DNA of 17,779 bases, taken from IMG/VR virus record IMGVR_UViG_2698536449_000001; one strand, given 5' to 3'. Both the position numbers and the translations under genes were made by a program. This document shows positions 1-17,779 of the stretch, one piece after another; the first letter of the stretch is position 1; each line of letters begins with the position of its first letter. The notes below the pieces were generated by a model. That model made no database searches and was not told the DNA's origin. It saw only the letters and a program-made list of their open reading frames with translations. The stretch is from a virus (lineage: Duplodnaviria > Heunggongvirae > Uroviricota > Caudoviricetes).

Positions 1-439
1 AGCCACCGTTACGCTGTATCTGAACCAGCAGGCGAACTTCAGACGGATTCCTGTCTCCCTTTGAGGTGGTTTCCACCAGTGCCTGTACACCGAAGGTAAA
101 ACGCAGTCGGTCAATGTTTGCCGACGTGATGGTCCGGGTGATCGGCGTGTCATATTTCACTTCCGTACCCAGCACCGTCTCGGAGCCGGAGGATTCAAAT
201 CCCTCCGGCGGTGACTGCTCCTGCTCACCTGCCCGGAACACCACCGTGACGCCGGAGATGTTGGTATTCCCCTCACTGTCCAGCACCGGCGTACTGTTCA
301 GCAGCACGCTTTTTAATCCATCCACCGGACCTTCAACCGGCCCTTCGCTGATGGCATCGATCACACTCAGCAGCTGCGTGGACTTCAGGTTGTCCTTCGC
401 TTCGCGCGGGGTATGCCCCTTACTGCTGCCTTTACCCAT
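1..439 (-). CDS. J: Central tail fibre / host-specificity protein J, 5' portion only (about 146 codons; gene runs off the window start)
   Basis: Minus-strand frame is open from the ATG at 439-437 to the window edge and translates as MGKGSSKGHTPREAKDNLKSTQLLSVIDAISEGPVEGPVDGLKS..., the lambda gpJ N-terminus as I recall it. Absent from the ORF track only because there is no stop in the window. Sits downstream of I, as in lambda. Confidence 0.9.
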   Translation of the reverse strand, partial: MGKGSSKGHTPREAKDNLKSTQLLSVIDAISEGPVEGPVDGLKSVLLNSTPVLDSEGNTNISGVTVVFRAGEQEQSPPEGFESSGSETVLGTEVKYDTPITRTITSANIDRLRFTFGVQALVETTSKGDRNPSEVRLLVQIQRNGG

Positions 440-499
440 TCGTCATGCTCCATAAACGATAAAACCGCCCGGAGGCGATTTCACATAAAACATTTTGCA

Positions 500-1171
500 T
501 CAGCGACCAATCACCACAACCTGACCACCGTCCCCTTCGTCTGCCGTGCTGATCTCCTGAGATACCACACGTGACCCCACGCGCATTTCACCATACAGAA
601 CAGGCATAACATTGCCCTGGGCAACCATGTTATCCAGTGAGGAGAAATAGGTGTTCTGCTTACCGTTATCCGTTGTCTGTGTGCGGGGAGTTCTGGCTTT
701 CGGTGCCAGCATCTGAGCCACACCGCCGAGCACCATACTGGCACCGAGAGAAAACAGAATGCCGGTCATACCACCGGCACCAATGGCAGCCCCCCATGCT
801 GCAAGGGTGGCTCCGGCGGTAAAGAATGATCCGGCAATGGCGGCTGCTCCCAGGACAATCTGGAATACACCACCTGACTTGGCCCCGGCGACTCTGGGAA
901 CAATATGAATCACAGCGCCGTCAGGCAGAGCCTCATGTAACTGTGCCGTTAATCCGGACGTGCTAACATCCTGCCCGGCAATACGCACCTGATACCAGCC
1001 GTCGCTCAGCTTCTGACGAAACGCAGGGAGCTGTGTGGCCATCGCCCGGATGGCTTCGGCACCCGTTTTCACACGAAGGTCGATGCGGCGGCCAAATCGT
1101 TGCAAATCCCCGTAAAGGCAGATGCGTGCCATGCCCGGTGACGCCAGAGGGAGTGTGTGCGTCGCTGCCAT
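500..1171 (-). CDS. I: Tail tip assembly protein I
   Basis: 223-aa ORF (MAATHTLPLASPGMARICLYGDLQRFGRRIDLRVK...) with the length and sequence of lambda gpI from memory. Its start overlaps the 3' end of K by 103 nt in another frame, as in lambda. Confidence 0.92.
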   Translation of the reverse strand: MAATHTLPLASPGMARICLYGDLQRFGRRIDLRVKTGAEAIRAMATQLPAFRQKLSDGWYQVRIAGQDVSTSGLTAQLHEALPDGAVIHIVPRVAGAKSGGVFQIVLGAAAIAGSFFTAGATLAAWGAAIGAGGMTGILFSLGASMVLGGVAQMLAPKARTPRTQTTDNGKQNTYFSSLDNMVAQGNVMPVLYGEMRVGSRVVSQEISTADEGDGGQVVVIGR

Positions 1172-1617
1172 TTGTCGGTATACCTCTCTCGTTTGCTCAG
1201 TTGTTCAGGAATATGGTGCAGCAGCCCGCCGTCACCGCAGTAAATGGCGGCATGATTCGGCACCGATGAACCAAAACAGCACAGCAGCACATCGCCCGGC
1301 TGCGCCGCTGACAACGGCACCTGATACAGCCCTGTGGCCTCCAGATTATCCAGATAGAGATTCTGACCGTGACGCCACCAGTCATCCTCACGATGAAAAT
1401 CCGGCATCTCAATCCCCGCCAGATGGTAAGCATCCCGGAACAGCGTGTAACAGTCCGTCACCCCGTGCTCAAAGCGCCGCCCGGTAAGATGTGGCACACA
1501 GCGGAACTTGTGAATCGCCCCCCGGCAGACCAGCCACCACGGCAAATCACTCTGCACCTGCAGCCGCCGGTCGGCCTCACTCAGCCAGGGCAGACCACCG
1601 GGGTGGCTGTGGACCAG
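1069..1617 (-). CDS. K: Tail tip assembly protein K, 3' segment (codons ~66-247: JAMM motif onward plus NlpC/P60-like region), cut at the ambiguous base at 1618
   Basis: In-frame translation LVHSHPGGLPWLSEAD...TDCYTLFRDAYH...AAASTFV* ending at the stop at 1069-1071. The HxHx7Sx2D JAMM motif is visible. In the ORF track this segment is fused across the n at 1618 to I codons 1-26 from the duplicated block. Confidence 0.8.
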   Translation of the reverse strand: MVHSHPGGLPWLSEADRRLQVQSDLPWWLVCRGAIHKFRCVPHLTGRRFEHGVTDCYTLFRDAYHLAGIEMPDFHREDDWWRHGQNLYLDNLEATGLYQVPLSAAQPGDVLLCCFGSSVPNHAAIYCGDGGLLHHIPEQLSKRERYTDKWQRRTHSLWRHRAWHASAFTGICNDLAAASTFV

Positions 1618-1618
1618 N

Positions 1619-2302
1619 CCAAATCGTTGTAAATCCCCGTAAAGGCAGATGCGCGCCATGCCCGGTGACGCCAGAGGGAGTGTGTGCGTCGCTGCCATTT
1701 GTCGGTGTACCTCTCTCGTTTGCTCAGTTGTTCAGGAATATGGTGCAGCAGCCCGCCGTCACCGCAGTAAATGGCGGCATGATTCGGCACCGATGAACCA
1801 AAACAGCACAGCAGCACATCGCCCGGCTGTGCCTCTGTCAGTGCGACACGGTAAAAACCCGTCACCTCCATATTGTCAAGATAGAGATTCTGACCGTTAC
1901 GCCACCAGTCATCCCCGCGATGAAAATCCGGCATCTCAATCCCTGCCAGATGATAAGCATCCCGGAACAGCGTGTAACAGTCCGTCACCCCGTGCTCAAA
2001 GCGCCGCCCGGTGAGATGCGGCACACAGCGGAACTTGTGAATCGCCCCCCGGCAGACCAGCCACCACGGCAAATCACTCTGCACCTGCAGCCGCCGGTCG
2101 GCCTCACTCAGCCAGGGCAGACCACCGGGGTGGCTGTGGACCAGTGCCACAATCTCACCCTGCATCTCTGCCTGCAGCCAGTCTTCCGGCGACATACGGA
2201 AATACGCCTCCGGCTCACCGGAGATATTCACGCAGGGGAAATATCTTTCCCCCTCCGGCGTTCTTACCACGAAGCCGCACGACTCCGCTGGAGCACATCG
2301 CC
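1619..2302 (-). repeat. Divergent duplicate copy of an internal K/I segment (K codons ~13-239 plus the overlapping start of I), bounded by n at 1618 and the N-run at 2303-2334
   Basis: About 527 bp at 1090-1617 recurs at 1618-2144 with scattered substitutions, and about 165 bp at 2140-2302 recurs at 2345-2516. Translation gives RCAPAESCGFVVRTPEGERYFPCVNISGEPEAYFRMSPEDWLQAEMQGEIVALVHSHPGG...IYNDL. A second I start (MAATHTLPLASPGMARICLYGDLQRF) is present at 1698. Confidence 0.85.
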
Positions 2303-2334
2303 NNNNNNNNNNNNNNNNNNNNNNNNNNNNNNNN
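2303..2334. other. Assembly gap: run of 32 N (a further single n at 1618)
   Basis: Literal n characters in the sequence, both exactly at the junctions of the duplicated K segments. Confidence 0.99.
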
Positions 2335-2547
2335 GGGATGACTGTGGACCAGCGCCACAATCTCACCCTGCATTTGTGCCCGCAGCCAGTCCTCCGGAGC
2401 CATCCGGAACCGTTCCTCCGGCTCACCGGAGATATTCTCGCTGGGAAGATACCTGTCTCCCTCCGGCGTTCTTACCACGAAGCCACACGACTCCGCTGGC
2501 GCACATCGCCGGGCGTGCGCCAGAATCGCTGATTCTGTCTCTGTCAT
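2335..2547 (-). CDS. K: Tail tip assembly protein K, 5' segment (codons 1-71, ending at the LVHSHP JAMM motif where the N-run begins)
   Basis: ATG at 2547-2545 lies 5 nt downstream of the L stop. Translation is MTETESAILAHARRCAPAESCGFVVRTPEGDRYLPSENISGEPEERFRMAPEDWLRAQMQGEIVALVHSHP, then Ns. Confidence 0.8.
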
Positions 2548-2552
2548 GGGAT

Positions 2553-3251
2553 TTACTGCGAAAGTTTGTTAATGGAAAGGAAGCCGCCAAAGTTGCCGAC
2601 GTTATTGCGAAACTTACAGCCACTCAGGCATTTGCTGCATTTATCCTTCGTGATGTCGGACGTTGGCTGGTCATATTCATCCGCGACCGCCGGACCGTGA
2701 TAACCGCACTCATCGCCGCGATAGGTCCAGGTGCAGGTGTTGGCCAGCATGATACGTCCCGGAAAAACAGCGCCATCTGTTTCCGTCGGCGTGGACAGTA
2801 CAAAAGAGGCACTCACCGCGCTCAGTTCGCTGCACTGCTCAATGCGCCAGCGGCTGATCACCTCCTGCTCCGGATCGGCGTCACTGTTTCCGTTGACGAA
2901 GTTCACCGCATCCAGAAAACGGGCGTAAACCTTACGCCGGACCACCGTTCCGCCGACCAGACTCTGTAGATCTTCCGCCATCCCGGTGACCATACCGTAC
3001 AGGTTAGAAACCATCAGCGTGGGGCGCGTACTGGTGCCTTTGCCATTCAGTTCAAAACCACTCCCCTGAATGGGATACGGCTGATACTGTCGCCCCTGCC
3101 AGGTGACCGGCTCACCTTTTTCGTTCTGCTCATTACAGAAAAAATAACGTTCTCCACCGACCTCTGTCAGATCGATTTCCCAGAGCACCACGCTGGCCGA
3201 CTGCTCCGCACGGGTGCATTCATTCAGTGTTTCCTGCCGGATATCCTGCAT
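2553..3251 (-). CDS. L: Tail tip protein L
   Basis: 232-aa ORF (MQDIRQETLNECTRAEQSASVVLWEIDLTEVGGERYFFCNEQ...) matching lambda gpL from memory, with C-terminal cysteines (CSKCLSGC). Its start shares one nucleotide with the M stop, as in lambda. Confidence 0.93.
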   Translation of the reverse strand: MQDIRQETLNECTRAEQSASVVLWEIDLTEVGGERYFFCNEQNEKGEPVTWQGRQYQPYPIQGSGFELNGKGTSTRPTLMVSNLYGMVTGMAEDLQSLVGGTVVRRKVYARFLDAVNFVNGNSDADPEQEVISRWRIEQCSELSAVSASFVLSTPTETDGAVFPGRIMLANTCTWTYRGDECGYHGPAVADEYDQPTSDITKDKCSKCLSGCKFRNNVGNFGGFLSINKLSQ

Positions 3252-3580
3252 CAGTTCACCACCTGTTCAAACTCTGCGCTGAACTCAACACGCAGCATAC
3301 TGACCCGCGACGACCATTTTGCGCAGGTCACCTTTATCTGCCGCCACTCATAAGGCGGCGTCCACAGAAAGGCTTTCCAGCCCCCGTGCTCTTCCAGAAA
3401 CGACTCCAGTACCATGGCCTCCTCACGGGGGACAGAAAGCGTCACGCTGTACGTTTTCAGGTTGGCATTCAGCCCGGCAGGCGCTCGCTGGGAATAGCCA
3501 TCACCAAAGCGCACCTTTCTTACAGAAGGGGCCGAAGCCACATCCATACCGGGTTTCACTTTCCAGCGGAAGGTTTTCAT
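3251..3580 (-). CDS. M: Tail tip assembly protein M
   Basis: 109-aa ORF (MKTFRWKVKPGMDVASAPSVRKVRFGDGYSQRAPAGLNANL...) matching lambda gpM. Its start overlaps the H stop by 4 nt. Confidence 0.93.
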   Translation of the reverse strand: MKTFRWKVKPGMDVASAPSVRKVRFGDGYSQRAPAGLNANLKTYSVTLSVPREEAMVLESFLEEHGGWKAFLWTPPYEWRQIKVTCAKWSSRVSMLRVEFSAEFEQVVN

Positions 3581-6138
3581 CGTCCACCTCCGGAGAACAG
3601 GCCACCATCACGCATCTGTGTCTGAATTTCATCACGGGCACCCTTGCGGGCCATGTCATACACGGCCTTCATCATCTGTGGACCTGGCAGACCATTCGTA
3701 CCGTCGTTCTGAATCACCACGTGATTGTTCTGATTAAAATTAATGCCTTCAGCCCGCCGCATCTGCGCCGGACTTCCGGCACCGCCCACATAACCACCTT
3801 CCGCATAGCCGCGCATCAGCCGGTAGAGATTCCCCACGCCAATCCGGCTGGTTGCCTCCTTCGTGAAGACAAATTCACCACGGTGAACAATCCCCGCTGG
3901 CTCATATTTGCCGCCGGTTCCCGTAAATCCCCCGGTTGCAAAATGGAATTTCACCGCAGCGGCCTGAATGGCTGTACCACCTGACGCGGATGCGCCGCCA
4001 CCAACAGCCCCGCCAATGGCGCTGCCGATACTCCCGACAATCCCCACCATTGCCTGCTTAAGCAGAATTTCTGTCATCATGGACAGCACGGAGCGGGTGA
4101 AGCTGCGCCAGTTCTGTTCACTGCCGGTCAGCATCGCCGCCATATTCTGTGCAATACCATCAAAGGTCTGCGTGGCTGCACTTTTAACCTGTGACATACT
4201 GTCCGTGGCGCTCTCTTCCCACTCACTCCAGCCGGACTTCAGGCCTGCCATCCAGCTCCCGCGAAGCTGGTCTTCAGCCGCCCAGGTCTTTTTCTGCTCT
4301 GACATGACGTTATTCAGCGCCAGAGGATTATCGCCATACTGTTCCTTCAGGCGCTGTTCCGTGGCTTCCCGCGCTGCCTGCCGGTCAGTCAGCCCCCGGT
4401 TTTTCGCATCAATGGCTGCCCGTTTTGCCCGTTGCTGCTGTGCGAATTTATCCGCCTGCTGCGCCAGCGCATTCAGGTGCTCCTGATACGTAACCTTGTC
4501 ACCAAGTGCAGCCAGCTGGCGTTTGTACTCCAGCGTCTCGTCTTTATGCGCCAGCAGGGATTTCTCCTGTGCGGACAGCTGGCGACGTTGTGCCGCCTCC
4601 TCCAGTACCGCGAACTGACTTTCTGCCTTCCACAAATCCCGGCGCTGCTGGCTGATTTTCTCATTCGCTCCGGCATGCTTCTCCAGCGTCCGGAGTTCTG
4701 CCTGAAGCGTCAGCAGGGCCGCATGAGCACTGTCTTCCTGACGATCGCCCGCATACACCTTCACGCCGGACTGTTTCGGCTTTTTCAGCGTCGCTTCATA
4801 ATCCTTTTTCGCCGCCGCCATCAGCGTGTTGTAATCTGCCTGCAGGATTTTTCCGTCTTTCAGTGCCTTGTTCAGTTCTTCCTGACGGGCGGTATATTTC
4901 TCCAGCGGCGTCTGCAGCCGTTCGTAAGCCTTCTGCGCCTCTTCGGTATATTTCAGCCGTGACGCTTCGGTATCGCTCTGCTGCTGCGCATTTTTGTCCT
5001 GTTGACGCTGTTGATCTACCCTCTTTTGGGCTGCATCCCGCTCCAGGCGTTTTTTTTCACGATCATCCCAGTAACGCGCCCGTGCTTCATCGTTAACGAA
5101 ATAATCATCCTTGCGCAGATTCCAGATGTCGTCTGCTTTCTTAAACGCAGCCTCTGCCTTAATCAGCATCTCCTGCGCGGTATCAGGACGACCAATATCC
5201 AGCACCGCATCCCACATGGATTTGAATGCACGTGCAGTCCTGTCTGCCCAGGTCTCCAGCGTGCCCATGTTCTCTTTCAGGCGGCGGGTCTGGTCATCAA
5301 ACCCTTTCGTTGCGGCCTCGTTCGCCGCCTGCAATGCCCCGGCTTCATCGCCGGAACGCTGCAACTGAGCAACATACGCAATCTGCTCCGCCGTCACGTT
5401 ATGGAACTGGCGTGCCATCGCCGTCAGCCCCGACGTCGGGTCTGTGGTCAGCTTCCCGAAGGCTTCAGCGACCTTGTCCACCTCCACGCCGGATGCATAG
5501 GAGAAACGCGCCACACTCTGGCTGATGGACGCAATCTGAGCCTCACCGCTTACCCCCGCCTTAACCAGTGCGCTGAGTGACTCGCTGGTCTGGTTAAACG
5601 TCAGCCCTGCCGCCTGCCCGGCTCTGGACAGGACCAGCATACGATCTGCCGTCAGTCCCGCCTGATTACCGGAAAGGACCAGCGTTTTGTTGAAATCGGA
5701 CAGGGTTGAGTTGCCCTGATACCAGGCATACGCCAGCGCACCGGTCGCCACCGCCAGCGAGGTGGCCCCCACCATCGGCAGGGTGATCGCGCCGGCAAGC
5801 CCCCTGAACATGGGGATCATCCCGCCGAAGGAGTCCTTAACCTGACCACCCTGTTGCAGCAGGATCAGCCAGGGATTCTGCCCCCCTGCAAGCTGCGTGG
5901 CCACGTCGGTGAACTGTGCAGGCAGCATACGCATGGCGGCTTTATACTGCCCGACGGAAATCCCCGCTTTCTGTGCAGCCAGCGCCTGTCGGCTCAGCGA
6001 CTGTTCAACGACTGCCGCTGTTTTTTTCGCATCACTTTCCGTACCGGAAAAATGACGCCTGACTCTGGCCATCTGCTCGTCAAATCTGGCCGCATCCAGA
6101 CTCAAATCAACGACCAGATCGCCTACCGGTTCAGCCAT
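3577..6138 (-). CDS. H: Tail tape measure protein H
   Basis: 853-aa ORF, the same length as lambda gpH, with an N-terminus (MAEPVGDLVVDLSLDAARFDEQMARVRRHF...) I recognise. Long coiled-coil-like central region and a Gly-rich C-terminal part. Overlaps the T ORF by 8 nt. Confidence 0.95.
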   Translation of the reverse strand: MAEPVGDLVVDLSLDAARFDEQMARVRRHFSGTESDAKKTAAVVEQSLSRQALAAQKAGISVGQYKAAMRMLPAQFTDVATQLAGGQNPWLILLQQGGQVKDSFGGMIPMFRGLAGAITLPMVGATSLAVATGALAYAWYQGNSTLSDFNKTLVLSGNQAGLTADRMLVLSRAGQAAGLTFNQTSESLSALVKAGVSGEAQIASISQSVARFSYASGVEVDKVAEAFGKLTTDPTSGLTAMARQFHNVTAEQIAYVAQLQRSGDEAGALQAANEAATKGFDDQTRRLKENMGTLETWADRTARAFKSMWDAVLDIGRPDTAQEMLIKAEAAFKKADDIWNLRKDDYFVNDEARARYWDDREKKRLERDAAQKRVDQQRQQDKNAQQQSDTEASRLKYTEEAQKAYERLQTPLEKYTARQEELNKALKDGKILQADYNTLMAAAKKDYEATLKKPKQSGVKVYAGDRQEDSAHAALLTLQAELRTLEKHAGANEKISQQRRDLWKAESQFAVLEEAAQRRQLSAQEKSLLAHKDETLEYKRQLAALGDKVTYQEHLNALAQQADKFAQQQRAKRAAIDAKNRGLTDRQAAREATEQRLKEQYGDNPLALNNVMSEQKKTWAAEDQLRGSWMAGLKSGWSEWEESATDSMSQVKSAATQTFDGIAQNMAAMLTGSEQNWRSFTRSVLSMMTEILLKQAMVGIVGSIGSAIGGAVGGGASASGGTAIQAAAVKFHFATGGFTGTGGKYEPAGIVHRGEFVFTKEATSRIGVGNLYRLMRGYAEGGYVGGAGSPAQMRRAEGINFNQNNHVVIQNDGTNGLPGPQMMKAVYDMARKGARDEIQTQMRDGGLFSGGGR

Positions 6139-6565
6139 ACCGGACTCCTCCTGCGATCCCTTCTGATACTGTCATCAGCATTACGTCATCCTCCGTCATG
6201 TCCGCCACATCCGGGGAAGCGGGGATAACTTCATTCCCGTCCGGGCCAAAGCGGACACCTCCGGCAAGCCCTGCCGCTTTCTGCATCAGCACATCATCTT
6301 CAGGCTCTTCGTCAGCCTCGCGCCGGTTCAGCAGACTGAAATCCAGCGGATGCATCTCCGGATCGCTGAAAAACAGGCTGAGCACGGTGTACGTCAGCCC
6401 GGAAAAGTGCATATCCAGCAGAACATCATGAAAATAATGGGTACTGTAAAAGCGGTGCCAGTCGGCATACTCCGTGGATGACATCCCGGCAAGCATGGCG
6501 CGCCAGTCGGGTCGCCCCATCTCACGCGCCAGTTTCAGGGCAAAACTCAGCTCACCGTCGAACAC
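6131..6565 (-). CDS. T: T segment of tail assembly chaperone gpGT; expected to be translated only as a G-T fusion after a -1 frameshift, not from its own start
   Basis: Open frame in the -1 frame relative to G, beginning inside the slippery site. The ORF-track start is a GTG rendered as M. Position and product match lambda T. Confidence 0.85.
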   Translation of the reverse strand: MFDGELSFALKLAREMGRPDWRAMLAGMSSTEYADWHRFYSTHYFHDVLLDMHFSGLTYTVLSLFFSDPEMHPLDFSLLNRREADEEPEDDVLMQKAAGLAGGVRFGPDGNEVIPASPDVADMTEDDVMLMTVSEGIAGGVRYG

Positions 6566-6969
6566 TTTCCCGCAGAAACAGGCTCTGCAGGCCCGGCGTC
6601 CTCTGCCTGTTCAGGAGCATCATTCACCACAAACTCATACATACCGGACAGCCGGTACACCACGTTTTCAGCATGAGAAATTGCCTCTGTGGGCCAGGTG
6701 GTAAGCACTTCCTGCTCAATCTGTTTAACGGCTTCATTCATGGACGGCATCTGCGTCTTCTTCGGATGGTTATGCCACAGGGACATCGCAACCACAAAAG
6801 CGCCGGTTCTGATGGCGTCTTCCACAGTAAACTTCCGGTTGCTGTCTGACTCCGCCTGTTCTGCCTGCCGTTTCATCAGGTCGAGATGCTCAATACGCTG
6901 CAGGGCTGACAGTTCAGAAAGCGTGACGGTCACACCGTTATGTTCAAATGATTCGGTTTTCAGGAACAT
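6547..6969 (-). CDS. G: Tail assembly chaperone G
   Basis: 140-aa ORF (MFLKTESFEHNGVTVTLSELSALQRIEHLDLMKRQ...SAGKCSTVS) matching lambda gpG, with the frameshift site near its 3' end. Confidence 0.92.
   Translation of the reverse strand: MFLKTESFEHNGVTVTLSELSALQRIEHLDLMKRQAEQAESDSNRKFTVEDAIRTGAFVVAMSLWHNHPKKTQMPSMNEAVKQIEQEVLTTWPTEAISHAENVVYRLSGMYEFVVNDAPEQAEDAGPAEPVSAGKCSTVS
6565..6571 (-). other. Programmed -1 ribosomal frameshift slippery heptamer G GGA AAG (G to GT)
   Basis: Plus strand 6565-6571 is ctttccc, so the minus strand reads GGGAAAG. In the G frame it falls as xxG GGA AAG, 6 codons before the G stop at 6547-6549. The -1 frame then continues open through T. Confidence 0.85.
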
Positions 6970-6984
6970 CGCTGACTCTCCGGA

Positions 6985-7725
6985 TTAACTGGCGGTGACG
7001 TTGATTTCTGCAACCGCAGCAAACTCACCATTACCAGATACGACCGGAATGTTGACCTTGCCTGCAGCAACACCTTTCACGGTGATGGTCATACCACTGA
7101 CCGACACGGTGGCTTTTGTTTTATCCGCAGACACCGCACGGAAGCTCTTGTCGGTTGCGCCATCCGGCTGGAATGCCACGGTCAGCGTGGTGCTCTGCCC
7201 TTTCACTACGGAAGCACTGGCGGGTGTCACCGTCATGCCGGTCGTCGCCGTCACCGTGCTGCGATCTTCTGCCATCGACGGACGTCCCACATTGGTGACC
7301 TTCACCGTGCGGGTAATCACCTCCTTCGCCGTCACCGCCTTACCGATACTGCTGACCCAGCCACGGAACACATCGACCGTGCCGTTCGGGAAGCGGATTT
7401 TATAGGCACGGGTATCACCTTCATTAAACCACGCCAGCAGCGCCTGCTGCCCCTGCTCTCCGGGCATCCACGCCAGCGTGAAGCTGGTATCTCCGGCAGA
7501 TTTCTGCCCCTGCCCGGTCGCAGTCCAGTCTGCATCTTCATCATCGAGATAGCTGTCGTCATAGGACTCAGCGGTCAGTTCGCCGGGCGTCAGGTCTTTA
7601 ACTTTTGCCAGACGCGACCAGTCAACGTCTGAAAGCGGGTTCGCATAAGGGTCACCGCTCCCCTTATAAACCCACAGGGTGGTCCCGGCACCTTTCACCG
7701 GCATTGTAGGATTTGGTACAGGCAT
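6985..7725 (-). CDS. V: Major tail tube protein V (C-terminal Ig-like domain)
   Basis: The ORF-track entry 6985..7755 starts 10 codons too early. The lambda gpV N-terminus [22 protein letters not shown] begins at the ATG at 7725, preceded by a GAGGA Shine-Dalgarno and lying 8 nt after the U stop. 246 aa. Confidence 0.92.
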
Positions 7726-7732
7726 AGCGTCC

Positions 7733-8128
7733 TCACATTTCATAGATAATGACATAAGTCAGATCGGCTGAACTCCACAGGCCCGCATCATCGTCGCGCC
7801 GGTAGTCATAGCCGCTGGCCACCATACTGGTGATCAAATCTGACAGTGCCGGGATATCGCTCATCACCGGATAAATCCGGGACTCCATCCACGAATCCAG
7901 CTCTGAATCCGGCACCTGAGCAGGCAGGAAAACTTCAATATGCAGCTCCGCCTGCCAGGTATCGCTGTCCAGCTCTTCGCCCGTGTATTCAGCGCCGGTG
8001 AGATAAACGGCAATTGCCGGAAAATCTTCCTCATCAAAAACAGCGGGGCGACCATCAAAAAGCGTCGCCCCGGTGTCATGCTTCTCCAGTGCATCCAGTA
8101 CGGCTGCACGGAGTTCAGTATGTTTCAT
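7733..8128 (-). CDS. U: Tail terminator protein U
   Basis: 131-aa ORF ([36 protein letters not shown]...) matching lambda gpU. Its start overlaps the Z stop by 4 nt. Confidence 0.93.
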
Positions 8129-8703
8129 CGCTTTATTACCATTCTCAGTTGATGCTGCAGCGCATAGCCCAGCTCTTTCGGAAGACGTTCACGCCGTATC
8201 CGTTCAATATTCTGTTTAAACGCCGTGGTCAGCGGCACCGCCATCGGGATTTTCACCACATCAATGGGGTAACGGTTTTTCCCGGCCACACGCTGCATAA
8301 CATGCCACCGGCCGTTTTTCAGTTGCTGAATAAACGCGCCGGGAATACGACGGTTACCCACCACAAGCACGCTGCCGCCACCTTTCAGGGATGAACGCTG
8401 CCCCTTTTTATGACGCCTGCGGCGGGACAGGACAACCCGCGCATTACCCAGCTTGATTACGGGCAAATCCCCCCGGTTAACTTTGATTCTGGCCTGCGGA
8501 TTTTTGACCGTGGCCCTTTTCAGCCTGGCCCTTTCCTTTACCAGTTTCCGGCGTACCTTTGTCTCACGGGCAACCTGTGACGCAGACTGCGATATCGCGG
8601 ATGAAGCAACGCGGTTAATGGCCATTGCGGCGGCACCGGGCACCGCCGTTTTGCTGATACGGCTGAGGTTTTCAACGGCCTGCTCAAGACCTTTTATGGC
8701 CAT
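8125..8703 (-). CDS. Z: Tail completion protein Z
   Basis: 192-aa ORF (MAIKGLEQAVENLSRISKTAVPGAAAMAINRVASS...) matching lambda gpZ. Confidence 0.92.
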   Translation of the reverse strand: MAIKGLEQAVENLSRISKTAVPGAAAMAINRVASSAISQSASQVARETKVRRKLVKERARLKRATVKNPQARIKVNRGDLPVIKLGNARVVLSRRRRHKKGQRSSLKGGGSVLVVGNRRIPGAFIQQLKNGRWHVMQRVAGKNRYPIDVVKIPMAVPLTTAFKQNIERIRRERLPKELGYALQHQLRMVIKR

Positions 8704-8714
8704 ACATCCCCCTT

Positions 8715-9068
8715 TCAGCGGCGACGGTTAACGGCAGGCGGTACGCCCCGTCCAAGCCAGAGATGACAACTTCCGCCATCATCCGGCGAAACCCGATCTA
8801 CCCAGAAATTTTCCTCACCGATGGTCAGCGTGTCTCCACGCCGCAGCTGCCGCACCTCATCAGTCCGGACAAACAGGGACGGGCTGGAGCCTTCAACGCG
8901 CACGCCCTGTCCGGCATAGCTGATATTTTCAGGGTCATCAAAAACACCACGTATCACCGCACCTGACTGCTCACCGGATGTCATGGTGGCTGACGTTCCC
9001 ATGTACCCGCGTATCGTTTCATCGGCGCGGGCAATGGCAGCATCGAACAGGTTATCGAAATCAGCCAC
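8715..9068 (-). CDS. FII: Head-tail joining protein FII
   Basis: 117-aa ORF (MADFDNLFDAAIARADETIRGYMGTSATMTSGEQ...) matching lambda gpFII. Confidence 0.92.
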   Translation of the reverse strand: MADFDNLFDAAIARADETIRGYMGTSATMTSGEQSGAVIRGVFDDPENISYAGQGVRVEGSSPSLFVRTDEVRQLRRGDTLTIGEENFWVDRVSPDDGGSCHLWLGRGVPPAVNRRR

Positions 9069-9079
9069 AGCGCCTCCCG

Positions 9080-9478
9080 TTATTGCATTCTGGCCAGGCC
9101 GCGCTCTGTCATTTCGGCTGCCACACCGGCAGAGACACGAAACGCCGTTCCCGGCAGCACAAATGCCACAGGTTTATCCCGCGTGGCGTGAAGTGCATCA
9201 GTATGCAGCGTCACCAGTGCCACGACCGTGACCAGTTCAGCCGTATCCTGAATCACGGTATCCGGCTGCGCTGATACCACCTCATTTTCATGCCCGGTCA
9301 GCACATTTTCCCGGCTGAGAGGGGTGTCCTGACCGGCAGTTTCATCCGTGTCATCAAGCTCTTCTTCCAGCTCTGCCACACGAAGCGCCAGTTCTTCTTT
9401 CGTTCCCGTCAAACTGACATCGCGGTTCAATTGCTCACCCAGCTCCTGAAGACGGGCAATCAGTTCATCTTTCGTCAT
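9080..9478 (-). CDS. FI: DNA packaging / head completion protein FI
   Basis: The ORF-track entry 9080..9517 is N-terminally extended. The lambda gpFI N-terminus MTKDELIARLQELGEQLNRDVSLTGTKEELALRVAEL begins at the ATG at 9478, preceded by GGAGGAG. 132 aa. Confidence 0.9.
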   Translation of the reverse strand: MTKDELIARLQELGEQLNRDVSLTGTKEELALRVAELEEELDDTDETAGQDTPLSRENVLTGHENEVVSAQPDTVIQDTAELVTVVALVTLHTDALHATRDKPVAFVLPGTAFRVSAGVAAEMTERGLARMQ

Positions 9479-9519
9479 GAACTCCTCCACAGAGAGAAAA
9501 TGGCCCCGAAGGGCCATGA

Positions 9520-10545
9520 TTACGCCAGTTGAACGGACACGAACTCATCAGGATCAGCCAGCAGCATCAGCGGTGCTGACTGAATCATGGTGAACTCACG
9601 CGCCGGATCGCCGGTGGTCACCCAGTTTTTCGGGTAACGGGCAGAAGCGTTAATGCCTTCGCGCTGTGCGTCCGCATCCTGAATGCAGCCATAGGTGCGC
9701 AGACCGCGAGCCTGAGTGTTCCCCAGCACCATCGTGTTGTCCGGCAGGAAGTTCTTTTTGACGCCGTTTTCCACGTACTGTCCGGAATACACGACGATGG
9801 CCACATCGCCATACATTCCCTTATAGGACACCGCTTTGCCCAGGTCTTTTACCGCTGTCTCCAGCTCGGAATGAGAGCCGCGACGGGTATCCAGCTTCTC
9901 CTTGACGGCTTTGAAGGAACGGAACAGCGCCCAGCCTTTCGGGTCAAACACGATGATATTCACCACACCGCTGGCGTTCAGCGCGTAGGCTTCGATATCG
10001 TCGGTCGGGTCATACGTGGACTTGTCACGCTTGCTCCACTCCGTGACGCCGGACTGTGTGATGTTGTTCGCCGCACTGCGGCCCATATCCACCTCAACCG
10101 GATCGAAGGCTTCACCGGTCATGGTGTATTTGCCCTTGAGCACGGCAGAAACTGCCTGCATCTCTTCGACCTGAGCAATGGCCAGCTCTTCGTCACGCAT
10201 GTTCTGCATGATGATGCGACGGCGGCGGTAAGCCGGGTCCGCCAGATTCTGCGGATCTTCATCCGGCAGGCGACGCAGGGTCATCTGCGGATTCACCTCA
10301 TGCTTGGGTTTGACATATCCCGGCGTAAATTCAGAGGTGGAGCCGCCACGGGAACGGATAACCTCACCGGAAACAATCGGCGAAACGTACAGCGCCATGT
10401 TTACCAGTCCCGGAATTTGTGAGAGATAGACTTTCTCCGTAGTGAAGGGATAGCTCTCACGGAAAAAGAGACGCAGAAACAGCGGATCAAACTTAAATTT
10501 CTGCTCATTTGCCGCCAGCAGCTGGGCGGTTGTGTACATCGACAT
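9520..10545 (-). CDS. E: Major capsid protein E
   Basis: The ORF-track entry 9520..10572 is extended. The lambda gpE N-terminus MSMYTTAQLLAANEQKFKFDPLFLRLFFRESYPF begins at the ATG at 10545. 341 aa. Confidence 0.95.
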   Translation of the reverse strand: MSMYTTAQLLAANEQKFKFDPLFLRLFFRESYPFTTEKVYLSQIPGLVNMALYVSPIVSGEVIRSRGGSTSEFTPGYVKPKHEVNPQMTLRRLPDEDPQNLADPAYRRRRIIMQNMRDEELAIAQVEEMQAVSAVLKGKYTMTGEAFDPVEVDMGRSAANNITQSGVTEWSKRDKSTYDPTDDIEAYALNASGVVNIIVFDPKGWALFRSFKAVKEKLDTRRGSHSELETAVKDLGKAVSYKGMYGDVAIVVYSGQYVENGVKKNFLPDNTMVLGNTQARGLRTYGCIQDADAQREGINASARYPKNWVTTGDPAREFTMIQSAPLMLLADPDEFVSVQLA

Positions 10546-10600
10546 AAAAAAATCCCGTAAAAAAAGCCACACAGGCGGCCTTTAGTGATGAAGGGTAAAG

Positions 10601-10933
10601 TTAAACGATGCTGATTGCCGTTCCGGCAAACACGGTCCGTTTTTTCGTCTCGTCGCTGGCAGCCTCCGGCCAGAGCACATCCTCATAACGGAACGTGCCG
10701 GACTTGTAGAACGTCAGTGTGGTGCTGGTCTGGTCAGCAGCAACCGCAAGAATGCCAACGGCAGCACCGTCGGTGGTGCCATCCCACGCAACCAGCTTAC
10801 GGGTGGAGGTGTCCAGCATCAGCGGGGTCATTGCAGGCGCTTTCGCACTCAATCCGCCGGGCGCGGTTGCGGTATGAGCCGGGTCACTATTGCCCAGCGG
10901 CTGGTAATGGGTAAAGGTTTCTTTGCTCGTCAT
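10601..10933 (-). CDS. D: Head decoration protein D
   Basis: [40 protein letters not shown]... from the ATG at 10933 (AAGGG Shine-Dalgarno at suitable spacing; the ORF-track start at 10939 sits too close to it). 110 aa, matching lambda gpD. Confidence 0.93.
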
Positions 10934-10942
10934 AAACATCCC

Positions 10943-11548
10943 TTACACTGGTGTGTTCAGCAAATCGTTAACGGCATCAGATGCCGGGTTACCTGCAGCC
11001 AGCGGTGCCGGTGCCCCCTGCATCAGACGATCCAGCGCAGTGTCACTGCGCGTCTGTGCACTCTGTGGTGCTGCGGCCAGAATACGGCGGGCCGTTTCCA
11101 CGGTCATACCGGGGGTTTCGGCCAGCACGCGTGCCTGTTCTTCGCGTCCGTGAGCCTCCTCACAGTTGAGGATCCCCATAATGCGACTGTTTTCTGCCGC
11201 AACCGCTGCGGTGATCTGCGCGTTCACGTCCGGCTGCGCCGCGCTGGCGTTCTCGCCCTCCGTCGCTTGCACCACGCCAGTAACGTCAGCCTGCGAAGCA
11301 GTGGCTGAAACAGTTGTTGATTGAGTCTCTTTGGTCATTCGCCCTCCTGAGAGACGGGATTTACGTGCATCCAGTGCATCACGCATGACGGTGATCGCAT
11401 CGGTACTGTTAACAAGTTCATCAGCCAGTCCGGCATCAATGGCCTCCTGACCGCTGTACACTGCAGCCTCGGTATCCAGCACAGCCTGCACGGACAGGCC
11501 GGTATATGCCGACACCTTCTGTGCAAACATCCGGCGGGTTGCATCCAT
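10943..11548 (-). CDS. Nu3: Scaffolding protein Nu3, nested in-frame in the 3' part of C
   Basis: An in-frame internal ATG at 11548-11546 (MDATRRMFAQKVSAYTG...) lies 238 codons after the C start, where I recall the lambda Nu3 start. It shares the C stop. No strong Shine-Dalgarno is visible. Confidence 0.6.
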   Translation of the reverse strand: MDATRRMFAQKVSAYTGLSVQAVLDTEAAVYSGQEAIDAGLADELVNSTDAITVMRDALDARKSRLSGGRMTKETQSTTVSATASQADVTGVVQATEGENASAAQPDVNAQITAAVAAENSRIMGILNCEEAHGREEQARVLAETPGMTVETARRILAAAPQSAQTRSDTALDRLMQGAPAPLAAGNPASDAVNDLLNTPV

Positions 11549-12242
11549 CCGGGACTGCAATGTTTCCCGGACATCATCCGGTAGATGGCTGTAGGGGTTG
11601 CCATCCACCTTATGGCTGCCGCTGTAAATCAGCGTGATTTCCACGCCCTGTTTCTCCAGTGCAGCGCCGTAATTACTGTGAGCCATCATGACGCCGATGG
11701 AGCCTGTCCGGGCGGTCTGCGTGACCAGACGCCGGGAGGCGGCACTGGCAAGCAGCTGACCTGCGCTGCAGTTCATGTCATTGGCCAGCGCCCATACCGG
11801 CTTTATGTCACGCACACGGGCGATGATGTCAGCGCAGTCAAATGCTCCCGCCACCATTCCGCCCGGTGTGTCCATATCGAGCAGAATGCCGTCCACCATC
11901 GGGTCGCTGGCAGCCTGTTGCAGACGGGCGATAATGCCGTTGTAACCGGTCATCCCCGAGTACGGCTGCAGCGCCCGCGTCCGGCTGACCAGCGTGCCGG
12001 ACACCGGCAGCACGGCGATGCCGTTCATTACCTGATAACTGCGGGCCTGTCGTGGTCCGTCATCATCACCGGATAACGCCAGCGCCGCGGGTGCCTCTCC
12101 GGCAGTCAGGCTGTCGCCGGATACTGCATCCGTCAGGCAGCTGATCCCAAGCTGGCCTGCAAGCGCACAAAAGAAAACCCGCGCATAGGCGGGTTCAAGC
12201 ATCAGCGGCTCATTAAAAGCCATGCTGGCAATATGCGGGAGA

Positions 12243-12262
<20 letters not shown>
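10943..12262 (-). CDS. C: Head maturation protease / scaffold C (GTG start)
   Basis: The ORF-track entry extends upstream through the B overlap. The lambda gpC N-terminus (M)TAELRNLPHIASMAFNEPLMLEPAYARVFF begins at the GTG at 12262-12260, preceded by GGAGGAG. 440 codons, overlapping the B 3' end by 20 nt as in lambda. Confidence 0.9.
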
Positions 12263-15943
<3,681 letters not shown>

Positions 15944-15969
<26 letters not shown>

Positions 15970-16489
15970 TCAGCAACCCCGGTATCAGTTCATCCAGCGC
16001 GGCTGCTTTGTTCATGGCTTTGATGATATCCCGTTTCAGGAAATCAACATGTCGGTTTTCCAGTTCCGGAAAACGCCGCTGCACCGACAGGGGGATCCCG
16101 TCGAGAATACTGGCAATTTCACCTGCGATCCGCGACAGCACGAAAGTACAGAATGCGGTTTCCACCACTTCAGCGGAGTCTCTGGCATTTTTCAGCTCCT
16201 GTGCGTCGGCCTGCGCACGCGTAAGTCGATGGCGTTCGTACTCAATAGTCCCTGGCTGGAGATCTGTCTCGCTGGCCTGCCGCAGTTCTTCAACTTCCCG
16301 GCGCAGCTTTTCGTTCTCAATTTCAGCATCCCTTTCGGCATACCATCTTATAACGGCGGCAGAGTCATAAAGCACCTCATTACCCTTGCCACCGCCTCGC
16401 AGAACGGGCATTCCCTGTTCCTGCCAGTTCTGAATGGTACGGATACTCGCACCGAAAATGTCAGCCAGCTGCTTTTTGTTGACTTCCAT
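15944..16489 (-). CDS. Nu1: Terminase small subunit Nu1
   Basis: 181-aa ORF (MEVNKKQLADIFGASIRTIQNWQEQGMPVLRGGGKGNEVLYDSAAV...) matching lambda gpNu1, with an N-terminal helix-turn-helix. Lies immediately downstream of cos on the minus strand. Confidence 0.95.
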
Positions 16490-16513
16490 TGTTCATTCCA
16501 CGGACAAAAACAG

Positions 16514-16626
16514 AGAAAGGAAACGACAGAGGCCAAAAAGCCCGTTTTCAGCACCTGTCGTTTCCTTTCTTTTCAGGGGGTGTTTTAAATAAAAACATTA
16601 GGTTACGGCGAAGAAGAACGGAAACG
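16514..16626 (-). promoter_or_regulatory. cosB: three Nu1-binding R elements (core CGTTTCC) between cosN and the Nu1 start
   Basis: agaaaggaaacgacag at 16514-16529, ctgtcgtttccttt at 16556-16569 (opposite orientation) and cgaagaagaacggaaacg at 16609-16626. Arrangement and sequences match my recollection of lambda cosB R1/R2/R3. Confidence 0.7.
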
Positions 16627-16666
16627 CCTTAAACCGGAAAATTGTCATAAATAGCGAAAACCCGCG

Positions 16667-16678
16667 CGCCTTCCGCCC
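16667..16678 (-). other. cosN cohesive-end 12-mer (minus strand GGGCGGAAGGCG), a variant of lambda GGGCGGCGACCT
   Basis: Flanks are identical to lambda as I remember it: CGACAGGTTACG on the right-end side and CGCGGGTTTTCGCTATTTATG on the Nu1 side. Only the second hexamer of the 12-mer differs. Confidence 0.75.
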
Positions 16679-16702
16679 CGTAACCTGTCGGATCGCCGGA
16701 AA

Positions 16703-16709
16703 GGACCCG
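16703..16709 (-). other. Candidate cosQ (minus strand CGGGTCC), about 25-30 bp from cosN
   Basis: Minus strand reads TTTGCGGGTCCTTTCCGG here. Placement is from my memory of lambda cosQ; exact boundaries are unverified. Confidence 0.4.
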
Positions 16710-16714
16710 CAAAA

Positions 16715-16729
16715 TGATAATAATTATCA
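16715..16729. promoter_or_regulatory. Perfect 7-1-7 palindrome TGATAATAATTATCA; Fur-box-like (function unproven)
   Basis: Directly visible. Matches the Fur box core TGATAATnATTATCA and about 16/19 of the 19-bp consensus GATAATGATAATCATTATC. Lies between cosQ and the divergently oriented right-end genes. Confidence 0.35.
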
Positions 16730-16877
16730 TCTACATGTCACAACGTGCATCTACGCCATCAAACCACGTCAAATAATCAATTATGACGCAGGTATCGTAT
16801 TAATTGATCTGCATCAACTTAACGTAAAAACAACTTCAGACAATACAAATCAGCGACACTGAATACAGGGCAACCTC

Positions 16878-17111
16878 ATGTCAACGAAGAACAGAACCCG
16901 CAGAACAACAACCCGCAACATCCGCTTTCCTAACCAAATGATTGAACAAATTAACATCGCTCTTGTTCAAAAAGGGTCCGGGAATTTCTCAGCCTGGGTC
17001 ATTGAAGCCTGCCGCCGGAGACTGTGCTCAGAAAAAAGAGTTTCGCCTGAAGCAAACAAAGAAAAGAGTGACATTACTGAATTGCTCAGAAAACAGGTTA
17101 GACCAGATTGA
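16878..17111 (+). CDS. Small basic ribbon-helix-helix-like protein; resembles YlcI/YnfO (DUF3950) proteins of E. coli lambdoid prophages
   Basis: 77-aa ORF with an Arg/Thr-rich N-terminus (MSTKNRTRRTTTRNIRFP), then a short beta-strand-like RNIRFP and two predicted helices (NQMIEQINIALVQKG, NFSAWVIEACRRRL). Weak AGGG Shine-Dalgarno 7 nt upstream. Family assignment is from memory. Confidence 0.6.
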   Translation: MSTKNRTRRTTTRNIRFPNQMIEQINIALVQKGSGNFSAWVIEACRRRLCSEKRVSPEANKEKSDITELLRKQVRPD

Positions 17112-17168
17112 AGCAATTTAGATAATCGTGCAGACTACGCCCCCTCATATCACATGGAAGGTACTACA

Positions 17169-17579
17169 ATGGCTCAGGTTGCCATTTTTAAACAAATATT
17201 CGATAAAGTGCGAAATAATTTAAACTATCACTGGTTTTATTCTGAACTAAAACGTCACAATGTCTCACATTACATTTACTATTTAGCCACAGAGAATATT
17301 CATCTTGTTCTTGAAAACGATAATACGGTTTTAATAAAAGGACAGGGTAAGGTTGTAAATGTAAGATTTTCAAAAAATAAATGCCTTATAGAAGCCACCT
17401 TAAAAGGATTCAAATCAGGAGAGTTATCATTTTACGAATACAGGAAAAATCTTGCTACAGCAGGGGTTTTCAGATGGATTACAAATATCCACGAAAACAA
17501 AAGGTATTACTATACCTTTGATAATTCATTACTCTTTACTGAGAACATACAGAACACTACACAAATATTTCCGCACTAA
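17169..17579 (+). CDS. Hypothetical AT-rich accessory protein (136 aa from the second ATG); possibly YbcV/YdfO-like (DUF1398), unverified
   Basis: ORF-track entry 17154..17579. The ATG at 17169 has a GGAAGG Shine-Dalgarno 7 nt upstream, so I prefer it. Roughly one-third G+C by eye, against clearly GC-richer structural genes. Same strand as, and 42-57 bp downstream of, the RHH-like gene. Confidence 0.5.
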
Positions 17580-17624
17580 ATCATAACGTCCGGTTTCTTC
17601 CGTGCCAGAACCGGACTCGCTGGC

Positions 17625-17779
17625 ATGATGAAATATGTGTACCCGGTAACCCCGGTGTGCATCGTTTTTGATTATTCCCGCACACTCGCGCAGAAGGAGT
17701 TCCCCGTCGGGCTACGGTCTCTGTTAATACGGGAATACGGCGACGATTGGATTTGCCCCTATATTTCCAGACATCTGTT
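17625..17779 (+). CDS. Possible 5' end of a further gene running off the window (MMKYVYPVTPVCIVFDYSRTLAQKEFPVGLRSLLIREYGDDWICPYISRHL...)
   Basis: Frame open from the ATG at 17625 to the window end, but no clear Shine-Dalgarno. A minus-strand frame is also open across this stretch, so the coding strand is unresolved. Confidence 0.2.
   Translation, partial: MMKYVYPVTPVCIVFDYSRTLAQKEFPVGLRSLLIREYGDDWICPYISRHL

Follow-up and report, generated by a model that had tools for sequence, protein, structure and literature searches.

The locus analyzed here is best compared with three described systems: the J-I-K-L-M-H tail module of phage lambda, the mosaic recombination of co-resident lambdoid prophages, and the insertion of redundant contigs, whether haplotigs or paralogs, by short-read scaffolders. 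In the output of scaffolders such as SSPACE and ABySS, a single n denotes an overlap between neighboring contigs that was expected but not detected. Single-N insertions have been described as "indicative of construction anomalies" (PMC5902842). The window, that is, the whole stretch of DNA that was analyzed, comprises 17,779 nucleotides of a Caudoviricetes genome (IMG/VR record IMGVR_UViG_2698536449_000001) and is filled by head and tail genes, the late region, of a lambda-like prophage, encoded on the minus strand in the order J', I, K (interrupted), L, M, H (3577-6138) and then on to A and Nu1 (Table 1). Outside the K region, the window is collinear with lambdoid phages: positions 1-1617 align in one piece with phage 434 and others at about 96% identity, and positions 2335-17748 align as a single piece with phage Chlobot (97.7%) and as two joined pieces with lambda (96.6%).

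Within the K region, the record contains an apparent extra copy of K that is almost certainly a scaffolding artefact. A preceding sequence-only reading of the window had noted that its collinearity with lambda is broken only by an n at position 1618 and by 32 Ns at 2303-2334, and this is borne out both by the alignments and by the count of non-ACGT letters, which are confined to these two runs. The block between them (1619-2302, 684 bp) is a collinear second pass over the I/K region, in agreement with the divergent second copy described in that reading. When compared without gaps, positions 1619-2144 of the block and 1092-1617 differ at 29 of 526 sites (94.5% identity), with the final 125 bp identical, and the last 176 bp of the block (2127-2302) differ from 2335-2510 at 24 sites (86% identity). 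If every position is expressed as a locus position, i.e. the window coordinate of contig 1 (1-1617), then contig 1 ends at 1617, the block (contig 2) covers 1092-1775 and contig 3 starts at 1600, and the only two step-backs on this map are exactly the two ambiguous runs. The block had been assigned K codons ~13-239 and the start of I; the codons are corrected here to 13-241, and the start of I is included only if position 1171 is used; current annotations begin I at 1072 or 1132. Altogether, three annotated starts of I are seen in close relatives, at 1072 (190 codons), 1132 (210 codons) and 1171 (a 223-codon ORF).

As written, K is split into three overlapping pieces (1069-1617, 1619-2302 and 2335-2547), as had been pointed out, and reading through the n or the N run produces spurious ORFs, for example 1069-1698, in which 27 codons of I are fused to K codons 66-247; an exact look-up of this chimeric ORF returned no record. 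Where the window has positions 1-4000, lambda and the best complete E. coli genomes have 3265 bases; the 735 extra bases equal the length of 1618-2352, and the longer form was found in none of the listed complete E. coli genomes. Deletion of 1618-2352, the repair suggested in the sequence-only reading, does give an intact K of 744 nt (247 codons) and does restore the lambda spacing. What has been inserted repeats sequence of its flanks, and an alternative repair considered below likewise gives 3265 bases.

Table 1. Features of the interrupted tail region, in window coordinates (informative sites are those that distinguish haplotypes P1 and P2; ranges given as locus are locus positions)
Feature	Position	Strand	Remarks
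Tail-tip gene J, 5' part	1..439	-	Cut off by the window's left edge; collinear with J in L003 and in L001
Tail assembly gene I, 190 codons in the annotation of relatives	500..1072	-	Pfam Lambda_tail_I on the product of a relative
Contig 1 end, K codons 66-247 and stop	1069..1617	-	P1 at 40/42 informative sites; 2/549 mismatches to L003
n, join of contigs 1 and 2	1618	.	526-base step-back on the collinear map
Block left, K codons 107-241, P2	1619..2019	-	31/31 informative sites P2 (locus 1103-1492, against L050)
80-bp stretch common to P1 and P2	2020..2099	-	P2 to P1 switch within; no informative site (locus 1493-1572)
Block right, K codons 13-80, P1	2100..2302	-	26/26 informative sites P1 (locus 1573-1765)
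32-N run, join of contigs 2 and 3	2303..2334	.	176-base step-back on the collinear map
Contig 3 head, K codons 16-71, P2	2335..2500 (166 bases)	-	24/25 informative sites P2 (locus 1603-1765)
K codons 1-16, start ATG at 2545-2547	2501..2547	-	Contig 3 back to P1 within 2501-2540, where the two alleles do not differ
Tail gene L	2553..3251	-	Intact, 100% identical to L003

The origin of the three pieces was traced with the closest relatives of the prophage, which were obtained by exact look-up of its tape-measure protein H: a complete chromosome (L003, CP104423.1) and three further loci (L004-L006), all of which are 100% identical to window positions 2501-16138, a comparison that for L003 comprises 13.6 kb with zero mismatches. 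Over the slightly longer range of 2335-16138 (13.8 kb), L003 has 24 mismatches, all of which fall within 2335-2500, and these are the very sites that separate the right part of the block from the head of contig 3. Haplotypes were called site by site, with L003 as the reference for the first version of K (P1) and an IMG/VR contig (L050) as the reference for the second (P2). The calls change from P2 to P1 inside the block and again near the beginning of contig 3, which is pure P1 from locus position 1806 on (Table 1), and both switches sit in stretches in which P1 and P2 are identical, 80 bp long at locus positions 1493-1572 and 40 bp long at 1766-1805. In a draft assembly of the same prophage (L006), a contig ends at locus position 1573, the edge of the 80-bp common stretch.

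The left part of the block (1619-2019) has 2/401 mismatches to E. coli FDAARGOS_944 (L007) and 26/402 to L003, and the former genome carries the second allele also in the region of the contig 3 head, where 2353-2510 is matched with 2/158 mismatches. The right part of the block (2100-2302) is identical to L006 over 203/203 bases, and its segment 2145-2302 is identical to all of L003-L006 (158/158), and it probably represents the prophage's own, authentic sequence. Contig 1 contains two P2-type sites only, 1226 and 1237, which lie 11 bp apart with flanks that are identical in both alleles; K at these sites differs from that of L003 by a single residue (GDGG vs GDGE), and a sister scaffold (L042) shows the reverse swap. 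These two bases may result from a bubble collapse in the assembler or from real variation.

The natural occurrence of the haplotypes was assessed by an exact pattern scan of IMG/VR that links a left segment (locus positions 1420-1495) to a right one (1601-1682). The P1 combination (contig 1 type with block-right type) was found in 10 stretches and the P2 combination (block-left type with contig 3 head type) in 4, and both are present in uninterrupted natural contigs. The block as written occurs in one stretch, L042, itself an n-containing scaffold with three copies of K, and the combination that results from deleting 1618-2352 occurs in none. The fragment predicted for P2 (1619-2126 + 2335-2510) differs from uninterrupted IMG/VR contigs at 2/684 (L050), 3/684 (L051) and 5/684 (L048) bases; a 100% match was not found among the contigs examined, the best in IMG/VR being the one with 2/684. 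Among complete E. coli genomes the best match of this fragment is 98.7% (FDAARGOS_944), a value that was set aside as not decisive alone for P2, the IMG/VR contigs being closer. The corresponding P1 fragment is matched by many uninterrupted natural contigs at 2/684 differences. The 684 bases of the block as written have at least 26 differences from every compared locus except L042 (2/684), and the hybrid made by the deletion has at least 15 differences from all loci compared. As a separate observation, none of 5,426 complete RefSeq E. coli genomes contains the prophage type of the window at >97% identity, and the tape-measure H protein of this prophage is found in 6,744 indexed blocks of the assembly collection, mostly on contigs of 10-50 kb, which suggests that a heavily sequenced lineage outside the 5,426-genome set carries it.

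The arrangement is very probably explained by contigs of two haplotypes, P1 and P2, laid in series, a reconstruction drawn from sequence comparison. The sample would have held two versions of K, with P1 belonging to the prophage of the window and P2 most likely to a further lambdoid prophage of the same genome. A short-read assembler would have lost track of each copy in the stretches that they share, at locus positions 1493-1572 and 1766-1805, with the result that three contigs ended inside K. Contig 1 would represent P1 up to position 1617, contig 2 (1619-2302) would begin as P2 and cross to P1 in the first shared stretch, and contig 3 (from 2335) would begin as P2 and cross to P1 in the second. 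The scaffolder, guided by read-pair links, would then have strung the three contigs in series, writing a single n for an expected overlap and 32 N for an estimated gap. Since contigs of P1 and P2 would merely follow one another in the record, nothing would be duplicated in the DNA. Both this behavior of the assembler and scaffolder and the placement of P2 as a paralog in the same genome, rather than in a second strain, are what we infer from the pattern. This segment is repeated in E. coli genomes, with a median copy number of 2-3 and a maximum of 14, and confusion between repeats is therefore to be expected here. One feature counts against this account of the assembly, namely that the contigs share 80-125 identical bases, unlike the output of a plain unitig assembler. 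On this reading, 1-1617, 2145-2302 and the sequence from 2511 onward most probably make up the true P1 locus, and joining 1619-2126 to 2335-2510 would give the true fragment of the P2 gene, with the P2 flanks residing on other contigs.

The sequence-only reading had likewise attributed the arrangement to mis-scaffolding between near-identical copies of lambdoid prophages rather than to real duplication, and in this it stands. It had also treated the whole 684-bp block as derived from a paralogous prophage, with contigs 1 and 3 abutting and the true K restored by removal of 1618-2352, and in this form the explanation is unlikely. The deletion does yield 247 codons and the lambda spacing, contig 3 runs without a break in the assembly, and lambdoid phages are mosaic, so that a P2-type patch in a P1 prophage is possible. 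Against this, the block is not simply foreign but a hybrid, the right 203 bp of which are 100% identical to the closest relatives, and it is the segment retained by the deletion, 2335-2500, that holds all 24 differences found over 13.8 kb. Although the motif LVHSHP is, as had been observed, encoded on each side of the block, the flanking 18-mers are not identical (GGGGTGGC... vs GGGATGAC...); within this 18-base overlap, contig 1 and contig 3 carry different letters at 2 sites (locus positions 1603 and 1606), and therefore the two contigs are not simply joinable. The K haplotype made by the deletion has, as described above, no occurrence in IMG/VR, where the natural haplotypes are found in 10 and 4 stretches.

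A direct comparison of the two repairs leads to the same result. Over 3265 bases, the product of the deletion (1-1617 + 2353-4000) differs from L003 at 24 sites, whereas the alternative (1-1617 + 2145-2302 + 2511-4000) differs at 2, which are the above-mentioned positions 1226 and 1237. K codons 16-71 read EGERYFPCVNISGEPEAYFRMSPEDWLQAEMQ under the alternative repair and EGDRYLPSENISGEPEERFRMAPEDWLRAQMQ under the deletion. The best repair is most probably to keep 2145-2302 and to drop 1618-2144 and 2303-2510, and the repair proposed earlier is probably wrong in detail.

Similar joins are found in other scaffolds. In the L/K/I/J region of L037, L038, L042/L049 and L051, joins written as a single n are accompanied by step-backs of 0.5-2.6 kb; L037 contains four single n in 14.4 kb, with a step-back of 529-1233 bases on the collinear reference at three of these, and P1-like and P2-like pieces are joined both in L038 and in L042/L049. 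A further IMG/VR isolate prophage contig, L044, belongs with these, and all such joins lie in the lambdoid H-to-J tail region. The single-n step-backs in the tail region are artefacts that scaffolding introduced systematically into a batch of isolate assemblies. The junction pattern that spans the n of the window (CTGTGGACCAG-N-CCAAATCGTTG) has no match in 185,579 species-representative genomes and none in IMG/VR. A looser pattern, in which the I-start segment comes 15-45 bases after the middle of K, has no match in JGI metagenome contigs and one in IMG/VR, the isolate contig L037, where the junction is again a single n. A scan of the species-representative genomes for a conserved 29-mer recovered 29 stretches, none with two copies.

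The second piece of L042 is the same P2-to-P1 hybrid K as the block, with 2/684 mismatches. Because a second assembly has it, the hybrid could be a real recombinant allele, for instance that of a third prophage in the lineage, rather than a cross-over made by the assembler, or else recombination between co-resident lambdoid prophages could have made a genuine, partly repeated K. This is quite unlikely. If true, a recombinant or repeated K would be a small example of ongoing exchange of tail genes between resident prophages.

The same artefact could also have arisen with P2 supplied by a mixed culture or a contaminating strain instead of by a second prophage of the same chromosome, a variant that appears very unlikely. 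A paralog and a second strain are indistinguishable from sequence alone, and lambda-like contamination is common in public assemblies. The presence of several lambdoid prophages per genome is, however, the norm, as the median of 2-3 segment copies indicates; P1-like and P2-like pieces occur together in scaffolds of at least two other isolates (L038 and L042/L049), and P2 differs from lambda itself. In the course of the analysis, contigs identical to lambda (100% over the compared stretch) were encountered in species-representative assemblies of unrelated bacteria (L008, L009, L011-L013, L016, L018, L021, L024-L026, L028, L030, L035 and L036), including those of Neobacillus, Oceanobacillus, Pseudomonas, Shewanella, Chromatium, Bradyrhizobium, Paenibacillus, Kitasatospora and Marinifilum. 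Several of these contigs are ~48.4-48.5 kb long or have ~1x coverage in their names, and they look like contamination of public genomes with lambda DNA.

One step-back free of ambiguous bases is known, in an isolate contig (L045, positions 13380-13800 of IMGVR_UViG_2663762886_000011) that contains a seamless 479-bp step-back within K, without N. Its joint is an 11-bp microhomology (GGCGATGTGCT), the reverse complement of which (AGCACATCGCC) equals the last 11 bases of the block, 2292-2302. Different prophage lineages meet at this joint, one side being 99.96% and the other 98-90% identical to L003. The step-back in this contig is probably a false contig merge, and a real duplication is possible. 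That the window, for its part, holds a genuine tandem rearrangement, with K partly triplicated and the n and Ns as mere low-quality bases, is highly improbable: real bases do occur at the step-back in L045, but that joint, with its short microhomology between different lineages, looks like a false merge; the 17.8 kb contain just two ambiguous runs, and two different junctions would each need to fall on one of them; no junction is readable, being an n here and in the sole IMG/VR match, with none in the 185,579 species-representative genomes or the JGI metagenome contigs; the 3265-base form is the one present in the listed complete E. coli genomes; and the copies are neither near-identical nor evenly diverged, as fresh duplicates would be, but follow two known natural, pre-existing alleles in blocks, in the order P1 / P2-P1 / P2-P1.

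With the arrangement read as P1 and P2 contigs in series, the consequences concern annotation. As written, the record yields a broken K and spurious fusion ORFs, and the prophage could be called tail-defective; it is most probably intact. Excision of an N-flanked block fails here to recover the true gene, as sequence derived from a paralog can reach into the neighboring contig, and repairs of this kind should be checked against close relatives or reads. The importance of the case is limited to annotation hygiene.

With respect to the known systems, the locus resembles the mosaic recombination of co-resident lambdoid prophages in that P1 and P2 alternate between identical stretches and stretches of ~86-92% identity, as is classic for lambdoid mosaics; no recombination event in this strain is needed to account for the window, however, the switches being located at contig ends and in stretches shared by the alleles. 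With redundant-contig insertion by a short-read scaffolder, which is marked by a single n or a short N run, the window shares ambiguous bases at precisely the points of joining, an inserted piece that on the collinear map overlaps the sequence on either side, a canonical gene order and length that return once the redundancy is removed, and the recurrence of such joins in further draft scaffolds at this repeat. The window differs from this system in that the inserted contig and the next one are each hybrids of alleles, and because of this, plain excision of the block recovers neither natural sequence. Once repaired, the locus shares with the J-I-K-L-M-H module of lambda the gene order and the gene lengths (K, 744 nt; L, 699 nt; I, 573 nt), at ~95% nucleotide identity. 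The repaired K is a protein of 247 aa encoded between L and I, contains the HSHP motif and differs by 1 residue from K of L003, which carries the Prok-JAB (MPN, with an HxH motif; PF14464) and NlpC/P60 (PF00877) domains. The repaired locus is thus an ordinary member of the lambda tail-tip module, with no biological novelty, and the three overlapping pieces by which the window as written differs from lambda K are an artefact rather than a property of the phage.
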